Shown here: positions 46,517-58,452 of the stretch, piece after piece
How positions within the stretch are numbered: position 1 is the stretch's first letter
Layout of the letters: each line of letters opens with the position of its first letter
Assembly: GCA_965372795.1 (NCBI GenBank)
Contig: CBDVDR010000001.1
Coordinates: 96,001-160,000, forward strand
Reading direction: 5' to 3'
DNA: 64,000 nucleotides
Origin: an uncultured bacterium
GTDB lineage: Bacteria > Zixibacteria > MSB-5A5 > GN15 > FEB-12
The notes under the pieces: model-generated
Databases searched by the model: none
What the model saw: only the letters and a program-made list of their open reading frames with translations
Told to the model about the DNA's origin: nothing
Translations under genes and position numbers: made by a program

Positions 46517-49500
46517 TTAAGGACAGGCTGGCAGAAGCGGACCTCCGCCGAATAAATAATCAACGAAATAAGTAATATCAGATATTCCGATCTCTTCCAA
46601 TTCATCACCATTAAAATTAGCTTCTTCAATGCAGACCGGTTCCTGACCCATGTTAAACAAGTAATCTACCATAAAGGTTAAATCAGAAATATTCGCATCG
46701 TCATCAATATCATTATTAGCATTGCCCCGATCTCCAAGACAACATCCAGATGATGGTGTAAAGAAGGATAAAGTATTTGAAGACCAAACCTCGGCACTGC
46801 TTTGATCGACAGCTTTTACTTTCCAGAAAATTTGCAGGTCAGGATTCAACGGTGATCCAAAAGTATAAGTCGTATCGGGTAACAATAAATATTCTTCATA
46901 AGAATTAAAAAATTCATCTTCAGAAATCCAAACTGTATATAGAATAAAATCAGAAGGATCATTATCACTTGAAGAATTCCATGTCAAAACCGGAAACTCG
47001 GTCTCAACAGTAGACTCATTCAATGGTGAAACCAGTGCAAATCCGCTCGGAAGTTGATTGACTGCATTTATAAAGAAAATTCGATTCTCAGAATATTCAG
47101 AATATTCATAACCATCATAAACTCTGACTCTCCAAAAATATTGCGCATCTTCGGTTAAAGTCTGATCGACTACCCACGATGTATTTGTCGGTCCTTTTGT
47201 AATTCCAACAGCAGAGGCGACCAGAGTAACCATGCCGGCATCAGAATAAACTTCGAACTCATAGGTCACATCATCTCCATCAGGATCATTTATATTTTCA
47301 GCTCTCAAAGTCGGAGTGTCAAACTCGACCAATTCATTTTGATCCGGTGCAAGAAGTTCACCAATCTCAGGTGGAACATTCATATGGAAACTCTGTGAGT
47401 TCCAGTCTGACCAGGTGACACCGTTGAAGACTCTTACCTGAAAAACATAATCAGCCCCATCCATTAACGGGGTACCGGAATACACAATACTGGTGTCATT
47501 TCCGGCAATTAGTCCTGAAGACCAATAATTATCACTATTACTGCAAAGCGACCCGGTGCCCACTTTGACCTCATATTGTGTAATTGAATTTATAGTCGTG
47601 TCCAAAATCGCCCATGAAAATTCAGGCGTATGATTAATAACATTTAAGTTTGAAACCTCATCTTTGAGATCAATCGCGGTAATCGCAGGATTTAACGACT
47701 CAACACTGTTATTAAAGAAATTCATCACTCTACCAAAAAACTCAGGACGTGTGATCTTATTCTGAAAAGCATATTCACTGGAAATTGCTTCAAATCCAAA
47801 ACTCATCAAAAACAGTTTATAGGTCCCCGTATAACTTAATCCGGTAACCCCGCCTGCTGCGATATTAAAATCTGCAATCGAACCATTAATTGTTGTCATC
47901 GACTGCATCTCAGTTTGATTTTGAGCGGCATCAAAAAGGATAGTAGCACCATCGCCAATCGGTGATCCGGGCAGACCATTATGAACCGGAGAAAATACCG
48001 TTGAGTTGTATTCAGCTTTCAAATAATTATTTAAAAAGGTCGGATCAGAGGAATTGAGCTGACTAATAAAAGATTGACCCGTCATGAACAGGTTGCCGCT
48101 ATTATCAAGAAATAGCTCAAGAGCAGTTATATCGGAAGCTGAAATCATATTAGGTCGTTCATCACCGACAAACCAGATGACCGTTTCATAATTATTTAAA
48201 TCTATGCCGCTTGGAGAACCGGAAACTGATTTATCCCATAAATCAAACGGCAGACTTTGGTTGTATAGTTCAGTTGTATAATAATTTTCATAACTGCCGC
48301 CGTTGTCATCATCAACCAATAAAATTTGTGGGACACCGATATTTAAGGCTAGACTAAAAGTATCAACTGCAATCGGATTATCTGAAGTTACGACAAGGAA
48401 AAAAGAATCAATGCAAGGTTCAAAATCAACAGGTATTGTAAAAACAATCGGATTGACTGATGAGCTATTCCCACTACTGCCGCCTTCAGCAGAAATTGTA
48501 CCGATATTCACCGAAGGTATATCAAAATTTATCGACAAATTATCTGCAAACATAGCACCGACAACATTAGTTACTTCTGCCCATTGATTAGTTAAAACAA
48601 ATTCAAATGTAATCGATTCACCCGGTTCGGCATTATCATCGCCGTTACCTAACTCTGAATCAGAAAACGACCAGTATTGTAAATTTAATTTTGGTCGGGA
48701 ATAATTAATATCAAAATTAGCATACATAAGAGTATCAGGTAGAGAAATATCCCAGACCGCAGTCTTGGTTTGATTATTTATATAATTTTGGGTGTTCGGA
48801 TTTGTTAAATCATCAAAATGGTCTTTACCGTTATAGGGCCACACATCTCCGGAGTTACCGCTGGAAGTGCCATACTCAAGTTCAAAAAGCCCATCAGCTT
48901 GTTCAATAGCTACCAGCTTGCGCCATTCATTCGAATTACCCCATTGAGTTTCATCAATGTGCATTATCTGGAGTCCCGAGGTAGGAATGCCTTTATCATT
49001 TCCACCCTTCATTCTATTCTCAATAATAAAATACTCTGGACCATAAATGCCATCTTTCCAAAGAGCATAAGCAACCGGATTATAAAGAGAAGTTGGAATT
49101 TCGACATCAATCATATTGGAAGTCACTTCGGTTAGAGTTATAAATCCAAGCTCTTTTTTGCACCAGGCATCCATAAACGACGGATAGGTCCCGCCATAAT
49201 TCCAACTGCCGCCAGCCATTAGCGACCAGTCACCAATTCCTGATGAGGAATAATCGGTATCATACAGATCCGGAAGTCCAATAAAATGACCATATTCATG
49301 TGCATAAACGCCCATTGTCGTAAAACCACCACCACTTGATTCTTCAGGTTCAGAGGTATACGAACTAATATTCACTCCATCAAGATATAAATTATTATAC
49401 ATGCCCCAGGCATGTGACCAGATTTGATTATCACTGCCGGTAGATTCAGCTCCCGGGCCGGCATGGACGATAAAGACACCATCAACATAACCGTTGTTGT

Positions 49501-50143
49501 CCCCATCAAACTGAGAAAAATCTACATCCGGGTTGGCAAGCATAACAGCATCCTCTGCCATCTTTTGAGCATTTCGAGGATAATTACCAAAACCGTTCTG
49601 TCCATCGACATAATACTCATAGGTTTGAGGTAAGCGATACCAGCCGGCGACAACTCCTTTGATGAAAAATCCATCATAGGAATTATCCATATAAAATTCT
49701 GTCATTGAGTAAGTATTATCAAACTCACTGGTAGAAAATAATAGTCGTTCAAAATCAGATTTTGTTGCTGAAAAGTTTGCCGTTGAAGGGTTCGTTGAAA
49801 AATCAGCCAATATTACAAGCACAGAAAAAGTGTCTGTCACTCCCGCTGTCAAACTAAAAGGCTGGTCCAAAGATGCTTTGTTGGCGGAAATACTTGGGTT
49901 GGGTTTATCCAATCCTCGTGATCGGGCATCTCTTATACGATCAGAAATCTCCTGAAGCTTACCGGACTCTCTTAATTGTTCAATAATATCCGGACTTGCA
50001 GATACAGCATAACTCGTTGAATAAGAGAAGATTACAAATAGCATTGTAATGAGTGAACATAAAAAAACGTGAGGGTTTTTACGAACTACAAAATTGGTTG
50101 TCAATTTACTCTCCTTTTGGTGTAAAAAAGTAGACAACACCAA
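46517..50143 (-). CDS. Secreted M6 (immune inhibitor A-like) metalloprotease with Ig/FN3-like domains and C-terminal dockerin-like module
   Basis: HAGPGAE, HEYGHFIGLPDLYD, WSLMAGGSW; CCLGDRGN...ISDLTFMVDYLF; start uncertain. Confidence 0.9.
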   Translation of the reverse strand: MVLSTFLHQKESKLTTNFVVRKNPHVFLCSLITMLFVIFSYSTSYAVSASPDIIEQLRESGKLQEISDRIRDARSRGLDKPNPSISANKASLDQPFSLTAGVTDTFSVLVILADFSTNPSTANFSATKSDFERLLFSTSEFDNTYSMTEFYMDNSYDGFFIKGVVAGWYRLPQTYEYYVDGQNGFGNYPRNAQKMAEDAVMLANPDVDFSQFDGDNNGYVDGVFIVHAGPGAESTGSDNQIWSHAWGMYNNLYLDGVNISSYTSEPEESSGGGFTTMGVYAHEYGHFIGLPDLYDTDYSSSGIGDWSLMAGGSWNYGGTYPSFMDAWCKKELGFITLTEVTSNMIDVEIPTSLYNPVAYALWKDGIYGPEYFIIENRMKGGNDKGIPTSGLQIMHIDETQWGNSNEWRKLVAIEQADGLFELEYGTSSGNSGDVWPYNGKDHFDDLTNPNTQNYINNQTKTAVWDISLPDTLMYANFDINYSRPKLNLQYWSFSDSELGNGDDNAEPGESITFEFVLTNQWAEVTNVVGAMFADNLSINFDIPSVNIGTISAEGGSSGNSSSVNPIVFTIPVDFEPCIDSFFLVVTSDNPIAVDTFSLALNIGVPQILLVDDDNGGSYENYYTTELYNQSLPFDLWDKSVSGSPSGIDLNNYETVIWFVGDERPNMISASDITALELFLDNSGNLFMTGQSFISQLNSSDPTFLNNYLKAEYNSTVFSPVHNGLPGSPIGDGATILFDAAQNQTEMQSMTTINGSIADFNIAAGGVTGLSYTGTYKLFLMSFGFEAISSEYAFQNKITRPEFFGRVMNFFNNSVESLNPAITAIDLKDEVSNLNVINHTPEFSWAILDTTINSITQYEVKVGTGSLCSNSDNYWSSGLIAGNDTSIVYSGTPLMDGADYVFQVRVFNGVTWSDWNSQSFHMNVPPEIGELLAPDQNELVEFDTPTLRAENINDPDGDDVTYEFEVYSDAGMVTLVASAVGITKGPTNTSWVVDQTLTEDAQYFWRVRVYDGYEYSEYSENRIFFINAVNQLPSGFALVSPLNESTVETEFPVLTWNSSSDNDPSDFILYTVWISEDEFFNSYEEYLLLPDTTYTFGSPLNPDLQIFWKVKAVDQSSAEVWSSNTLSFFTPSSGCCLGDRGNANNDIDDDANISDLTFMVDYLFNMGQEPVCIEEANFNGDELEEIGISDITYFVDYLFGGGPLLPACP

Positions 50144-53537: not shown

Positions 53538-53610
53538 TGGAGCAGATGGGGATCGAACCCACGACCTCTACGTTGCGAACGTAGCGCTCTCCCAACTGAG
53601 CTACTGCCCC
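53538..53610 (-). tRNA. tRNA-Ala(CGC), CCA not encoded
   Basis: GGGGCAG/CTGCTCC acceptor with G3:U70, anticodon arm CTACG-TTCGCAA-CGTAG, GGTTCGATCC. Confidence 0.96.
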
Positions 53611-53673: not shown

Positions 53674-54261
53674 TTAGAAAACCAAACCACCCCGCAGGAC
53701 AATGATCGGATTGGTCGAAACCTCATAAACTTCCGATCTGCCATAAGGCGCCCCAAAAATCACCAACTCACCCAACACTGCATATTTGGGATCAATAAAA
53801 AATACGATTTCTGTGCCAAGATGATAAGTCAGCAGATTTGCTTTTTTCAAAAATCCCATCTTTGCCAGATAAGCATACCCTAATCCGATAAAAGGTTTAA
53901 TCGCAAATCGCTGACGGGCTTTATTGATAATCCGTTTTAATCGGATATTCAGATCGAGGGCTTTTTCATGTTCATCATACGCATAAATATTCTGGATATT
54001 ACTCTCGAATCCAACCATCAGTTTGCGATTGATCGGGATATCAAAAAATATCCCAACCGATAAACCGGGACTGGTTTCAAAATCGTTGGCATCGGTATCG
54101 GAATCTTTAAGTTTTAGATGAATGGTACTTGAGTTGATGATGCCGGCTTTGAACCCAAACCCGCCTTTAACGATACTTTTATTAAAGGCATAAATCGGAC
54201 TACTAATTAAAATCAGAATTATTATTGCTGTAATTAATAGTATGATTTTTTTTGTCATCAA
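53674..54261 (-). CDS. Small outer-membrane beta-barrel protein
   Basis: Signal peptide, FGFKAG, PFIGLGY, terminal F. Confidence 0.7.
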   Translation of the reverse strand: MMTKKIILLITAIIILILISSPIYAFNKSIVKGGFGFKAGIINSSTIHLKLKDSDTDANDFETSPGLSVGIFFDIPINRKLMVGFESNIQNIYAYDEHEKALDLNIRLKRIINKARQRFAIKPFIGLGYAYLAKMGFLKKANLLTYHLGTEIVFFIDPKYAVLGELVIFGAPYGRSEVYEVSTNPIIVLRGGLVF

Positions 54262-54377
54262 AACTCTCGGTTAAATCTTTCTTTGGTCGGTCATAATACA
54301 ATCAGAAATAATTTACTTATAAGACGTAAAAAGTCAACACACGTTGTGTGATTTAACACGTTGTGTGATTTATTATT

Positions 54378-54500
54378 CGTGGGCGGCAGACGCCCTCGTC
54401 TGCCCCATACATGTAGTGTTTCTTCGTGGGCGACAGACGTCAACCACAATTCGTGTGCTCGTCTGCCCCACTCTTCGTAGGGAACAGGCATGCCTGTTCC
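54378..54500. repeat. REP cluster: family 2 (54378-54407, 54425-54470) and GTAG REP (54477-54500)
   Basis: CGTGGGCGRCAGACG...CGTCTGCCCCA; GTAG-GGAACAGGCATGCCTGTTCC. Confidence 0.85.
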
Positions 54501-54620
54501 GTTTCTTTTACATGTTTTTCGCTGTAAATTGTTCTGTAACTGACTTATACAATGAATTGGGTTCGTTTTGTTACTTTTGACATAGTGATGTCTTTGACAC
54601 ATTTCGTGTGGTTTCATGTT

Positions 54621-54946: not shown

Positions 54947-57553
54947 TTAAATACTATTTAATTCAATATTCTCTTTTAGTCTTTGCAAATGAAAATTATT
55001 AACATCAAGTTGTAATCCTTTGTTAACATATTCTTTTGCTTTTCCTTTGTCTTTTATATTAAAGGCTAACCACGCAAATCGAGAATAATCTTGCGCGTCC
55101 GCTTCATCTATTCTTGTATCAATAATTCCTAGTAATTCAGGAATCATAATTTGTTTTTCATCCATTCCAATTTTATCAAAGCGTTCTTTAAATAGTGCAT
55201 TACAAGTATTAACAGAATTACTTATGTCACCAAAAGGAATTTTAGGAATTTGACAAAGTTCCAATAAACTATTTATTACTTCATACCAATTCATATTCAT
55301 TTCACATAATCTTGAAATTCTTTTCCATGAATATATTTTATCTGATTTTGAGATATTATCACTCTCAAGAAATCTCATAACTGCATCGATTGAAGCATCA
55401 ATCATATTACATTCTTCGTATAATTCAGAAAGTGTTAACCATGCAGGCGTATAATTTGATGCTAAGAACTCTAATGTTTGTGAGTAATTAGATATTTCTT
55501 CTCCTTTATTACAGACCTTGTCTGCAACATGTTGAAACATACGTTCCACTCTTGGTTTAATTCCATGAATAACATCAGTTTGTTGCGATGTTCCAAAACA
55601 TTGAAGAAATTTAGTGTCTTCTTCAATTTTTCTTTTCAGTGGTGCTATGGGTAGTTTACGTTTTCCAAATATAGAAGCGACCAAAGGGACTGAAATAAAC
55701 TCCATATTGAAACTATCTTTCGAATAACTAATTTCAATAAAAGAACTCTTTGTAAGTTCATCAATCGCAGAAGTTACATCAAGTTTTTCACCTACCGATG
55801 GCTTTAAATATAGGGCTTGTAGGGCAAGCATAGGTATTGATGATCTCCAATTACAAAGAGTAAGGAAAATTCTCTTTGCTGCTTGAGATAATCCTGAAAA
55901 TGTTCTTTCAAACAGTGCTTGAAGAATATCATCTTTTGTTGCAATAATCCTTTTTACCTTTAAAACCTTTTTTTCTTTTGCAACTTCACCTAGAAGGATT
56001 TTAATTACATATGGATGACCCCTCGCTTCCTCTATTAAAGAAGTTTTGTAAGATGAAGTAATAATTTTCTGAATCCCTAATTGCTTGGAGTACCTATCAA
56101 TTAGTTCTTTACATTGTCTATCTGACATTCCACTAACTTCAATAGGATAATCTCCCTTAAATTCTCTTTTTCTTGTAGTAATTAACACTTTATTTGGTAA
56201 TCTAATATTAGTATTGATCCAATTATATGTTTCAATTGGATCTCTAACCGTCTCAAAGTTATCAAATACAAATAAAACTTTTCCTATCTCACTCTTTTGG
56301 AAATAATTCGAAAGGTAACTCAATTGTTTAAATGATTTATCATTTTTTTCTTTTGGATTTAGCAAGTTTACAAATTCTTTTGCTATCTCTTTATTTGAGA
56401 CAGTATGAGGTCTCACGATTTTAGGTCCTGTTTGAAGTAAATCAATGTCTCGTGCACTAAACCAGATTATTACATTAAAATTTGAATGTAAAGCAATGTC
56501 ATGTAATACTGTTAGACCAAGCCATGTTTTGCCAATTCCCCCTCTACCTAAAAGTGTAATCATTGGGTGTCTATCATCAAGCAAACACTTATGAAGCTCT
56601 TCCTCTAACTTATTCCTACAAATGTAATTATTAGGCTTGTCAGGTATGTTTGTAAATGTGTCGCCAATTGTTCTTAAACTTTCCAAGCCCTGCGTTTCAC
56701 TTTTAGGTAGATTTTCAACTGGTGTGAGGTATGGAGAAGAATCTTCTTCTTTTTTATTACCTGAATAATATGAAAGTAATTCAAATTTATTTTCTGTAAA
56801 TCCACCATTCGGAAAATAAAAATCTGATGCATCAGGATCTGAGAAAATTAAATCAATCTTTGTGAATTTATCAGAATAAATATAAAGACCATCTCGAAGA
56901 TTTTGATTTGTACTGTGTTTAAAAATATCAAAACAATCCACATTTTCGGAAATTGATGTTACCCTGTATTTTCTTGATATATTCTGATATAAATACGCCC
57001 ATGGTTTCTTAAAAAGACTTAAATTTTCTACAATTAATTGAATTGATCCTTCAAGTAAATAACATGCTTGGCTGACTTTTGCTACAGTTGGTGCTCCATG
57101 CCCTCTTGTCTTATTTCTTAACACTACAAAATCAATTATCCACTTTTTCAATGGAACTTTTGGCATAGTTTCGAATTGTTTAATATCTAGTAAAAATAGT
57201 ACTTGTTCCAATTTTGCAACTGCTTCAAATTGCCAATCACCTTCTCCGACCTTTTGTGTTATTTCTTTTCTATCATCAATAATTGATGGTTGGATAAATT
57301 GTGAAGCAGGTCCATTTAGGGCATCAAATAGTGCCGCTTCCCAAGCACCAAGACTGCTGGCATGGACTAAATTATACGACAATCTATATCTATGTTTATC
57401 TTTTTCATCTTCGATACACGCAATAATGCTTGCAGTAATTAATTTTGTAATCATTTCTCCAAAATATAATAAATCCAAAAATAATGATGCGTCTGAATCT
57501 TCTCTTGTAATAGAAATTCTTTCCCACATTTTATCAATTGGTCTAAATTGCAT
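54947..57553 (-). CDS. STAND (NB-ARC-like) NTPase with putative N-terminal HEPN-like domain and C-terminal TPR-like repeats
   Basis: Walker A GRGGIGKT, Walker B VLFVFDNFE, LITTR, GHP; RNKTRGH in N-terminal domain; helical C-terminus. Confidence 0.8.
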   Translation of the reverse strand: MQFRPIDKMWERISITREDSDASLFLDLLYFGEMITKLITASIIACIEDEKDKHRYRLSYNLVHASSLGAWEAALFDALNGPASQFIQPSIIDDRKEITQKVGEGDWQFEAVAKLEQVLFLLDIKQFETMPKVPLKKWIIDFVVLRNKTRGHGAPTVAKVSQACYLLEGSIQLIVENLSLFKKPWAYLYQNISRKYRVTSISENVDCFDIFKHSTNQNLRDGLYIYSDKFTKIDLIFSDPDASDFYFPNGGFTENKFELLSYYSGNKKEEDSSPYLTPVENLPKSETQGLESLRTIGDTFTNIPDKPNNYICRNKLEEELHKCLLDDRHPMITLLGRGGIGKTWLGLTVLHDIALHSNFNVIIWFSARDIDLLQTGPKIVRPHTVSNKEIAKEFVNLLNPKEKNDKSFKQLSYLSNYFQKSEIGKVLFVFDNFETVRDPIETYNWINTNIRLPNKVLITTRKREFKGDYPIEVSGMSDRQCKELIDRYSKQLGIQKIITSSYKTSLIEEARGHPYVIKILLGEVAKEKKVLKVKRIIATKDDILQALFERTFSGLSQAAKRIFLTLCNWRSSIPMLALQALYLKPSVGEKLDVTSAIDELTKSSFIEISYSKDSFNMEFISVPLVASIFGKRKLPIAPLKRKIEEDTKFLQCFGTSQQTDVIHGIKPRVERMFQHVADKVCNKGEEISNYSQTLEFLASNYTPAWLTLSELYEECNMIDASIDAVMRFLESDNISKSDKIYSWKRISRLCEMNMNWYEVINSLLELCQIPKIPFGDISNSVNTCNALFKERFDKIGMDEKQIMIPELLGIIDTRIDEADAQDYSRFAWLAFNIKDKGKAKEYVNKGLQLDVNNFHLQRLKENIELNSI

Positions 57554-57666
57554 AGTATTCCCCGCACTGTAAATGTTGTGTAATGTGTTCAAATATATGA
57601 TAAATACATCTTTTTGTCAATATCCACACAACTTCAATGGTGATTACTGATCCGCACCCAATTAAT

Positions 57667-58452
57667 ATGAGACACTATACAAAAAAACAAAAGCTGGCGA
57701 ACCAACGGAACGCCAAAAAATCCACCGGGCCAAAGACGCCCGAGGGTAAAGCAAAATCATCGCAAAATGCGATCAAACACGGCCTCTATGCCAAATCGGT
57801 CATCATCCGCTCGCCCAACTACAACGAAGACCGCAACGAGTACGACCAACTCGCCCAATCACTCTTTGAAGAACTAAAACCCGCAACCCATTTCCAGGAA
57901 ACCCTGGTCATCAAAATCATCAACTGCCTCTGGCGCAGCAAACGGGTCGTAATCGCCGAAACCGCCAAAATCTCTAAACAAATTAACCTTGTTACAAAAA
58001 ACCACGATCCCAAAAATGGGGAGAACGAACTTGTCAACGAAATTGGTATCAATCTGATTCCGACCGATAATTACAGCATTAACCTGATGCGCCATGAAAT
58101 GCGCCTCGACAAACAACTTAACCGTACTTATGAGCTCCTGAAACAACTCCAGAAAACATCCAAACCCAAAAGTAAATCTAAAAGTAACAAAACGAACCCA
58201 TTTAACAATCAAAAGAAAAGTGATAATTTACGTGGGCGGCAGACGTCCTCGTCTGCCCCAAAGGTACGTGGTGGCAGTCAACCACACCATGTGTGCTCGT
58301 CTGCCCCAGAGATAAACACCCCTGAAGTCAGCGATGCACAAATCGTCCGTGATCTGATCAAACTTTCTAAATTACATGACATGGAAATCCTGACCCCGAC
58401 CCCTTTGGAAAAACTAAACAGGATTTCAAAAAACAAGTCTTCACCCTTGTAG
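57667..58452 (+). CDS. Hypothetical protein with ANxRNAxKSTGPKTxEGK..S.NA.KHGL motif
   Basis: Recognisable uncharacterised motif; C-terminal part runs through REP palindromes; start 57637 or 57667. Confidence 0.75.
   Translation: MRHYTKKQKLANQRNAKKSTGPKTPEGKAKSSQNAIKHGLYAKSVIIRSPNYNEDRNEYDQLAQSLFEELKPATHFQETLVIKIINCLWRSKRVVIAETAKISKQINLVTKNHDPKNGENELVNEIGINLIPTDNYSINLMRHEMRLDKQLNRTYELLKQLQKTSKPKSKSKSNKTNPFNNQKKSDNLRGRQTSSSAPKVRGGSQPHHVCSSAPEINTPEVSDAQIVRDLIKLSKLHDMEILTPTPLEKLNRISKNKSSPL
58231..58308 (+). repeat. Two family 2 REPs inside the coding sequence
   Basis: 58231-58260 and 58267-58308 match 54378-54407 and 54425-54470. Confidence 0.85.

Follow-up and report, generated by a model that had tools for sequence, protein, structure and literature searches.

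Immunity that couples an effector to a STAND NTPase and tetratricopeptide (TPR) repeats is well established. Here we analyse a candidate of this kind, an 868-residue protein encoded in a 64,000-nucleotide stretch of the genome of an uncultured Zixibacteria bacterium (GenBank assembly GCA_965372795.1, contig CBDVDR010000001.1, positions 96,001 to 160,000), referred to below as the window. The protein joins an N-terminal helical bundle, which we read as a divergent HEPN RNase domain, to a central NB-ARC-type NTPase and a TPR-like C-terminus. A first-pass annotation of the window had proposed a candidate antiviral STAND protein with an RNase effector, and our analysis supports this proposal, the HEPN identity of the effector being probable rather than proven. 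On balance, we favour the view that the window protein is a single-polypeptide, NLR-like antiviral switch composed of a HEPN-like RNase effector, a STAND module and a sensor.

The Avs/AVAST proteins (Avs1-24) (Gao et al.; Lee et al. 2026, PMC13581612) resemble the window protein in carrying, on one polypeptide, an effector at the N-terminus, a STAND NTPase in the centre and a TPR-like sensor at the C-terminus, a tripartite layout that the window protein displays in full. They also share its patchy horizontal spread and the presence of defence genes nearby. The window family differs from Avs in that it has no PADLOC Avs match, its NTPase is of the NB-ARC/AP-ATPase type and its effector is HEPN-like. 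In our view the most fitting description of the protein is that of an uncharacterised Avs-like STAND protein with a divergent HEPN-like effector and an extra beta module.

Fusions of an N-terminal HEPN domain to a STAND ATPase and TPRs were described in a Swt1-like group in 2013 (PMC3710099), with Npun_F6454, MED222_16016 and Desac_1927 as named examples (Anantharaman et al. 2013). HEPN effectors are also mentioned for bNACHT proteins in the bNACHT preprint. The 2013 fusions share with the window protein a HEPN domain at the N-terminus that bears Rx4-6H (HEPN-like in our case), the STAND ATPase, the TPRs and the prediction of an NTP-gated RNase acting in conflict systems. Judged by the Pfam HEPN_Swt1 profile and by the published description of the named fusions, the window protein stands apart from them, as it has no HEPN_Swt1 match, an R-x5-H spacing and an additional beta module.

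PrrC and RloC offer a third comparison, as NTPase-gated HEPN RNases of abortive infection, a role that is predicted for the window protein. Both they and members of the window family can sit between type I restriction-modification (R-M) genes with RhuM or Fic/DOC nearby; HEPN genes have R-M operons, in many cases accompanied by RhuM or Fic/DOC toxins, as one of their most frequent contexts, and PrrC lies inside hsdMSR, which keeps it inactive (PMC3710099). Their architecture is different, however, with an N-terminal ABC-type ATPase and a C-terminal HEPN domain, whereas the window protein has the reverse order, a STAND NTPase and a TPR-like sensor, and most copies of its family are not linked to R-M genes. 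The KEN-domain HEPN enzymes RNase L and Ire1 may be compared as HEPN-superfamily RNases activated by ligand-driven self-association. The window protein is bacterial and lacks their kinase and ankyrin modules, and the likeness would be one of logic and not of orthology. The NB-ARC switch itself is common to plant R proteins and Apaf-1.

A recent census described 589 STAND clades, 198 of them defence-associated, and clustered only sensors of at least 400 aa (PMC13581612, Lee et al. 2026), a limit that the window protein's sensor, with its roughly 250 aa, would not reach. The term HEPN is absent from seven supplementary files of that paper, a set that does not extend to its large tables. A search of the open-access literature returned no characterised HEPN-effector Avs and no paper on the window family.

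The N-terminal bundle and its probable relation to HEPN domains

The HEPN superfamily is defined by an Rx4-6H motif in which a polar residue (N, D or H) follows the arginine; an upstream Ex3[KR] motif is frequent, and inserts occur between helices 2 and 3 (PMC3710099). Both motifs are present in the window protein (Table 1). The sequence LRNKTRGH highlighted by the first-pass annotation is there as described, with R146 to H152 running from 57118 to 57098. Conservation was counted over 129 sequences, each representing a cluster at 50% identity. R146 and H152, whose conservation had been proposed as a check, are invariant (129/129 each), N147 is kept in 128 with a single D, E33 is found in all 129, and K37 in 128, the remaining sequence having R. 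The spacing between the arginine and the histidine is x5 in 126 representatives, x4 in two and x6 in one. As R146 and H152 do not vary among the homologues, a chance occurrence of the motif is ruled out. Residues 1-184 contain 15 invariant columns, many of them polar or charged, and H152 is the sole invariant histidine of the N-terminal alignment. The bundle therefore carries a conserved Rx4-6H with a polar residue after the arginine, together with an upstream acidic residue within Ex3[KR], provided by E33-x3-K37.

An AlphaFold2 model of residues 1-300, based on the 129-sequence alignment, was obtained with a predicted local distance difference test score (pLDDT) of 96.2 and a predicted template-modelling score (pTM) of 0.92. 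Helices occupy residues 4-182 and are followed by a beta domain at residues 185-271. The N-terminal region of about 290 residues, previously taken to be helical throughout, is thus helical in its first part and consists of two domains. As read from the secondary-structure string of the model, the penultimate core helix (136-149) has R146 and N147 at its C-terminal end, H152 lies in the loop ahead of the last long helix (157-177), and extra helices (54-121) are set between core helices. The modelled placement of R..H relative to the core helices is of the HEPN type. We judged the model to be HEPN-compatible because its R..H, its Ex3K and its extra helices match the published description of the superfamily (PMC3710099).

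The N-terminal model was also compared with 48,161 chains using VIA-align. HEPN proteins account for about 15 of the best 50 rows, which were inspected, and their alignments cover model residues of about 1-184. By title or survey, nine are HEPN proteins (1jog, 1wwp, 2hsb, 8xdj, 7ae2, 7aex, 5hy3, 6tug and 4rgp), and a further six (5yep, 4txa, 4qik, 9oik, 6of2 and 6nlt) we take to be HEPN proteins. Up-down bundles of the DinB type (2qnl, 3di5, 5wk0, 2oqm and 4x8b) score like the HEPN rows; the fold matches are weak and generic. Foldseek with the 300-aa model gave nothing in the Protein Data Bank (PDB) at E <= 0.001, its top rows being noise such as complement C3b, and a PDB sequence-profile search found no match to the first 300 positions of the family profile. 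No recurrent Pfam family of any sort appeared at E <= 10 among 23 N-termini, those of the window protein and of 22 N-terminal-only homologues. HEPN RNases generally require the pairing of two domains; a complex prediction for two copies of the N-terminal 300 aa returned a score of 0.00, which speaks neither way on dimerisation. The comparison of fold with HEPN that the first-pass annotation had suggested therefore comes out as compatible, on the strength of the HEPN rows, the placement of R..H and the presence of Ex3[KR]. We consider it quite probable that residues 1-184 form a HEPN domain.

NTPase, C-terminal repeats and beta module

The assignment of an NB-ARC-type NTPase is secure. The Pfam match to PF00931 reaches E 3.5e-14 and 53.1 bits, against a cut-off of 23.5, which places the domain within this family; weaker NACHT and AAA matches cover the same stretch. 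Invariance of the NTPase motifs was assessed in 24 full-length homologues. In addition to the Walker A and Walker B residues given in Table 1, T459, R461 and the H513-P514 pair do not vary; we take T459/R461 to include the sensor arginine that follows the 'TT' strand, and H513-P514 to be the GxP motif. The set of P-loop, Walker B, sensor arginine and GxP that characterises STAND proteins is thus present, and because these residues are all invariant the NTPase looks functional from its sequence. A search of the PDB with the family profile retrieved the STAND proteins PH0952, AfsR and Apaf-1 for the NTPase part. Searches of NCBIfam and PHROGs gave matches in the NTPase region only, those of NCBIfam not meaningful.

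The TPR-like C-terminus proposed by the first-pass annotation is weakly visible on the single sequence, where TPR_8 matches residues 824-850 at E 0.0033, below its cut-off. It is better seen with the family profile, for which consensus-TPR proteins of the PDB were retrieved over profile positions of about 697-860, with E between 1.9e-6 and 1e-4, so that C-terminal repeats of the kind expected of a STAND protein are present. Conservation is lowest in the C-terminal 248 residues, where mean pairwise identity is 0.436 compared with 0.603 for the NB-ARC, and for this reason the region fits the role of a sensor.

Between the bundle and the NTPase lies the small beta domain, which is confidently modelled. 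G222 is invariant, and Y224, N249-G250 and S261-Y262 are conserved. Its resemblance to SH3, Tudor and KOW domains is weak, and it may possibly serve in RNA binding, in partner binding or as a spacer.

Table 1. Positions in the window of the STAND gene, the domains and motifs of its product, and neighbouring features
Feature	Position	Strand	Remarks
STAND protein coding sequence	54947..57553	-	868 aa; stop codon counted in; start ATG at 57553
Promoter-like site, TTGACA-17-nt spacer-TATATT	57592..57620	-	11/12 consensus positions; ~38 nt 5' of the ATG
Helical-bundle domain, residues 1-184	57002..57553	-	Read as divergent HEPN RNase domain; candidate effector
E33-x3-K37, second HEPN motif Ex3[KR]	57443..57457	-	Within long helix 21-45
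R146-N147-K-T-R-G-H152, candidate catalytic motif	57098..57118	-	R-x5-H; polar residue after R
Small beta domain, residues 185-275	56729..57001	-	Second half possibly an SH3-like barrel
NB-ARC (AP-ATPase type STAND), residues 317-532	55958..56605	-	Pfam PF00931
Walker A/P-loop, G336-R-G-G-I-G-K342-T343	56525..56548	-	G336, G338, G339, G341, K342 and T343 invariant
Walker B strand, L427-F-V-F-D431-N-F-E434	56252..56275	-	L427, D431, N432, F433 and E434 invariant
Helical TPR-like C-terminus, residues 621-868	54950..55693	-	Presumed sensor
Divergent upstream gene	57637..58452	+	271 aa; lysine-rich
Two open reading frames 3' of the STAND gene	53674..54617	-	195 and 108 aa
tRNA-Ala(CGC)	53538..53610	-	Downstream of the STAND gene by ~1.3 kb
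Immune inhibitor A-type M6 peptidase protein	46517..50143	-	1208 aa; M6 peptidase domain and Rha78A-like Ig domain

Distribution and surroundings of the family

The family to which the window protein belongs is large. In a library of 90%-identity clusters, 2,581 of 8,000 scored candidates matched at E <= 0.001. The 120 matches listed are 835-894 aa long with 43-50% identity and 96-100% query coverage, and full-length homologues of 862-894 aa align to the window protein from end to end. Sources among the matches listed include Patescibacteria, Bellilinea, Actinomycetota, Proteobacteria and Rhodocytophaga, with annotations of 'hypothetical', 'NB-ARC domain-containing' and 'TPR repeat protein'. 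The N-terminal 300 aa alone retrieved 603 representatives at E <= 0.001; the 150 N-terminal matches listed have the same architecture of about 870 aa or are fragments, and six of odd length, when scanned, either kept the NB-ARC or were fragments or likely gene-call fusions. Contigs from a set of one genome per species held 269 relatives.

The gene is present in a single copy in the window's own genome, and none of 30 related genomes of the same genus, family or order (completeness 76-100%) holds it. Together with the spread over many phyla, this is what an accessory gene that moves horizontally would show; the distribution is patchy and horizontally spread. A collection of 50,697 phage records contained no family match, and matches in a plasmid collection were confined to seven Ralstonia solanacearum megaplasmid records, so the family is not evidently phage- or plasmid-borne. 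In five of 80 family loci (L035, L057, L061, L069 and L075) the gene appears as two adjacent open reading frames (ORFs), reflecting a frameshift, a stop or an assembly error, and in two of the megaplasmid records (H6 and H7) the match is split, its two parts extending over 3480 bp and not 2613. Inactivation may have affected some copies of the family. Separately, five loci in related genomes (L112, L115, L117, L118 and L119) have Pfam HEPN_Swt1 matches within open frames 1035-1208 aa long. They may correspond to the HEPN-STAND-TPR proteins of 2013, and so represent a second, distinct HEPN-STAND lineage in the same phylum.

Genomic context was examined in a sample of 80 loci using crude ORF calls, with neighbours clustered within 6 kb and Pfam run on the two nearest ORFs on each side (143 upstream, then 140 downstream and the 3 remaining upstream). 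The sole recurrent neighbour families were HsdM-like (10 loci), HsdS-like (8) and HsdR-like (10). Type I R-M genes lay within two ORFs of the family gene in 11 of the 80 loci (L020, L021, L039, L043, L046, L051, L062, L065, L068, L075 and L079). The STAND gene directly follows hsdS in eight loci, and L020 and L043 show the tight order hsdM-hsdS-X-hsdR, where X is the STAND gene. For comparison, a gene picked at random was taken to have a probability of 0.0153 of falling within 5 kb of a DefenseFinder system (PMC13581612); at this rate at least 11 of 80 would have P of about 4e-8, a value that is indicative only as our criterion (Pfam names, two ORFs) differs. Four of these R-M operons carry extra passengers located between the hsd genes or after them, namely RhuM and PD-(D/E)XK, GmrSD-HNH, YhcG and KwaB (in L065, L051, L068 and L079), and appear to act as landing pads for defence genes.

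Other restriction or nuclease genes are neighbours in L003, L004, L005, L012, L032, L055 and L072, those for TIR, Schlafen, AbiV or AbiTii in L006, L010, L053, L063 and L074, and toxin-antitoxin-type genes in L002, L026, L033, L037, L044, L054, L067 and L077. About 31 of the 80 loci thus have R-M, Abi, TIR or toxin-antitoxin neighbours overall, and in four others (L016, L025, L059 and L071) integrase, transposase or phage genes were found alone. The domains seen among the neighbours were GmrSD, Mrr, methylases, TIR, Schlafen, AbiV, AbiTii and KwaB, as well as RhuM, Fic, HepT, PIN, HicA, integrases and transposases. The association with defence islands, which the first-pass annotation had named as a point on which its proposal could fail, is therefore found at the level of the family but not at the window copy, which is not in a defence island and stands alone.

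At the window locus, positions 54947-57592 on the minus strand form a single open frame. The ATG at 57553 is preceded by a GGGG stretch, and the start methionine it encodes is common to the full-length homologues. A TTG at 57592 was considered as an alternative start and rejected because it overlaps a -10 element and the homologues begin at the ATG. The promoter-like site upstream is the best-scoring one in the 4.4 kb scanned; since the number of such sites there is not above that in shuffles (17 vs 17.0), the promoter call is based on position and quality. The gene is AT-rich, as had been reported, with a guanine-cytosine (GC) content of 0.305-0.324 compared with 0.37-0.45 in both flanks (about 0.31 vs about 0.40).

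For the divergent upstream ORF, searches of Pfam, PADLOC, NCBIfam and PHROGs gave no family match. The genome has a second copy of it on a different contig, 79% identical and with a single in-frame TAA. Homologues of this ORF occur in several copies in related genomes, frequently at the ends of contigs, and the ORF may belong to a repeat or a mobile element. The two ORFs 3' of the STAND gene, on the same strand, matched no known family, and the longer one has a 52% identical homologue on a 2.4-kb contig of a same-genus genome. The tRNA-Ala gene lies beyond them, and farther away are an EamA transporter, the M6 peptidase protein and dnaX-ybaB-recR. An empty site was sought in relatives by means of two flanking ORFs; the matches fell on short contigs or contig ends, so that no insertion boundary could be drawn.

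Proposed mechanism, competing explanations and significance

Based on these results, a working mechanism can be suggested for the window protein. In the resting state the NB-ARC, presumably bound to ADP, would keep the protein monomeric and its N-terminal domain inactive. Upon infection, the short TPR-like C-terminus would bind a trigger, most likely a phage protein, and nucleotide exchange at the NB-ARC would then lead to oligomerisation. The oligomer would pair the HEPN-like domains, such that R146-N147...H152 and E33/K37 could form metal-independent RNase sites, and cleavage of tRNA, rRNA or mRNA would stop translation and abort the infection. We infer the RNase activity, the trigger, the oligomerisation and the abortive outcome by analogy with Avs/STAND switches and NTPase-gated HEPN nucleases (PMC3710099).

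Several observations weigh against this interpretation. None of the 23 N-termini mentioned above matched a Pfam HEPN family at E <= 10, and no profile placed the domain in a described HEPN family. Residues 1-184 were further compared by hhalign with alignments built from genome hits (HEPN_MAE_28990, above its cut-off in 1 of 285 genomes, yielded too few sequences for an alignment). Probabilities were 0.3% (P 0.21) for PF05168-type HEPN, 0.1% (P 0.58) for DUF4145 and 1.4% (P 0.037) for HEPN_Swt1, the last not significant allowing for three tries. This test has low power because known HEPN families score only 1.2-33% mutually: 16.2% (P 0.0016) for Swt1 with DUF4145, 1.2% (P 0.045) for Swt1 with PF05168-type and 32.8% (P 0.00046) for DUF4145 with PF05168-type. 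In favour of the HEPN reading, the Swt1 alignment spans the whole domain with both motif pairs in register: E33x3K37 falls on 'E..x.R' of Swt1, and R146-N...H152 falls on its 'RN..AH'. Beyond the effector, characterised Avs proteins have a far longer sensor than the roughly 250 aa found here. Around the window copy no defence genes were recognised by Pfam, PADLOC, NCBIfam or PHROGs, many of the 80 loci show housekeeping neighbours (gyrB, alaS and metabolic genes), and the defence-neighbour tally counts Pfam domain names without a matched control set. PADLOC-DB 2.0.0 returned 0 families for the window protein, and four homologues gave P-loop noise only (E about 0.002-0.009); with respect to PADLOC 2.0.0, the description of the protein as uncatalogued holds, as no model matches it or these homologues.

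The identity of the bundle is where the nearest competing explanation enters. The protein might be a defence STAND whose bundle is no RNase, and is instead another hydrolase, a nucleotide-binding or signalling module, or a coiled-coil-like, membrane-attacking bundle such as that of plant CNL resistosomes. Weak and generic fold matches, in which DinB-type bundles score like HEPN proteins, would fit this explanation, as would the failure of sequence and profile methods to tie the domain to any HEPN family. Nevertheless, the invariant polar and charged residues reproduce both HEPN motifs at their published positions, a metal site of the DinB type requires several conserved histidines where the N-terminal alignment has H152 alone, and the 15 invariant columns in 184, many polar or charged, make an enzyme site likelier than a pore-forming helix. 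We regard a non-RNase bundle as unlikely. It is very improbable that the protein is a non-immune signalling or regulatory STAND (of the AfsR, MalT or PH0952 type) with a housekeeping output or adaptor as its N-terminus, even though AfsR and PH0952 are among the nearest solved relatives of the NTPase and the window copy sits among ordinary genes (tRNA-Ala, dnaX-ybaB-recR and the EamA transporter). Pfam and NCBIfam scans found no DNA-binding or other output domain, and a regulator would be at odds with the absence from all 30 related genomes, the occurrence in many phyla at 43-50% identity, the foreign GC content and the recurrence of the family in R-M, defence and mobile contexts.

The R-M neighbours raise the question of whether the family acts as a second-line guard of type I R-M, a STAND counterpart of PrrC that is kept silent by the Hsd complex, or watches over it, and fires its HEPN RNase once restriction is disabled by an anti-restriction factor of a phage. 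HsdM, HsdS and HsdR are the only recurrent neighbours, the STAND gene can lie between hsdS and hsdR or directly after hsdS, PrrC is placed likewise, and RhuM and Fic/DOC occur in both contexts (L065, L002 and L026 here; PMC3710099). However, R-M linkage is confined to 11 of the 80 loci; the window copy is solitary, as are most of the others, and the protein must thus be able to function where no cognate Hsd complex is at hand. Type I R-M operons are also known to receive unrelated defence genes, of which GmrSD, YhcG, RhuM and KwaB were seen here. Such a guard seems decidedly improbable. A more specific proposal, which we think rather improbable, is that an unrecognised HEPN subfamily (R-N-x4-H with E-x3-K and an SH3-like module) has been mounted on a plant-R-type NB-ARC, guards type I restriction and cuts tRNA; it would be a PrrC analogue sensing anti-restriction, or a conserved phage protein, through its short, conserved TPR sensor.

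If the single-polypeptide antiviral switch that we favour is correct, nothing would be overturned, as effector-STAND-TPR immunity and HEPN-STAND fusions are already established ideas. A large, phylum-spanning, single-gene immune family, missed by at least PADLOC 2.0.0, would be recognised, and a divergent lineage would be added to the HEPN superfamily. It would pair a switch of the plant and animal NB-ARC type with an RNase effector, a combination with no characterised bacterial counterpart in the literature searched, and its repeated occurrence within type I R-M operons would provide a second, independent case of the PrrC logic. At 868 aa, of which ~250 make up the sensor, it would offer a compact subject for the study of how STAND oligomerisation activates an RNase.

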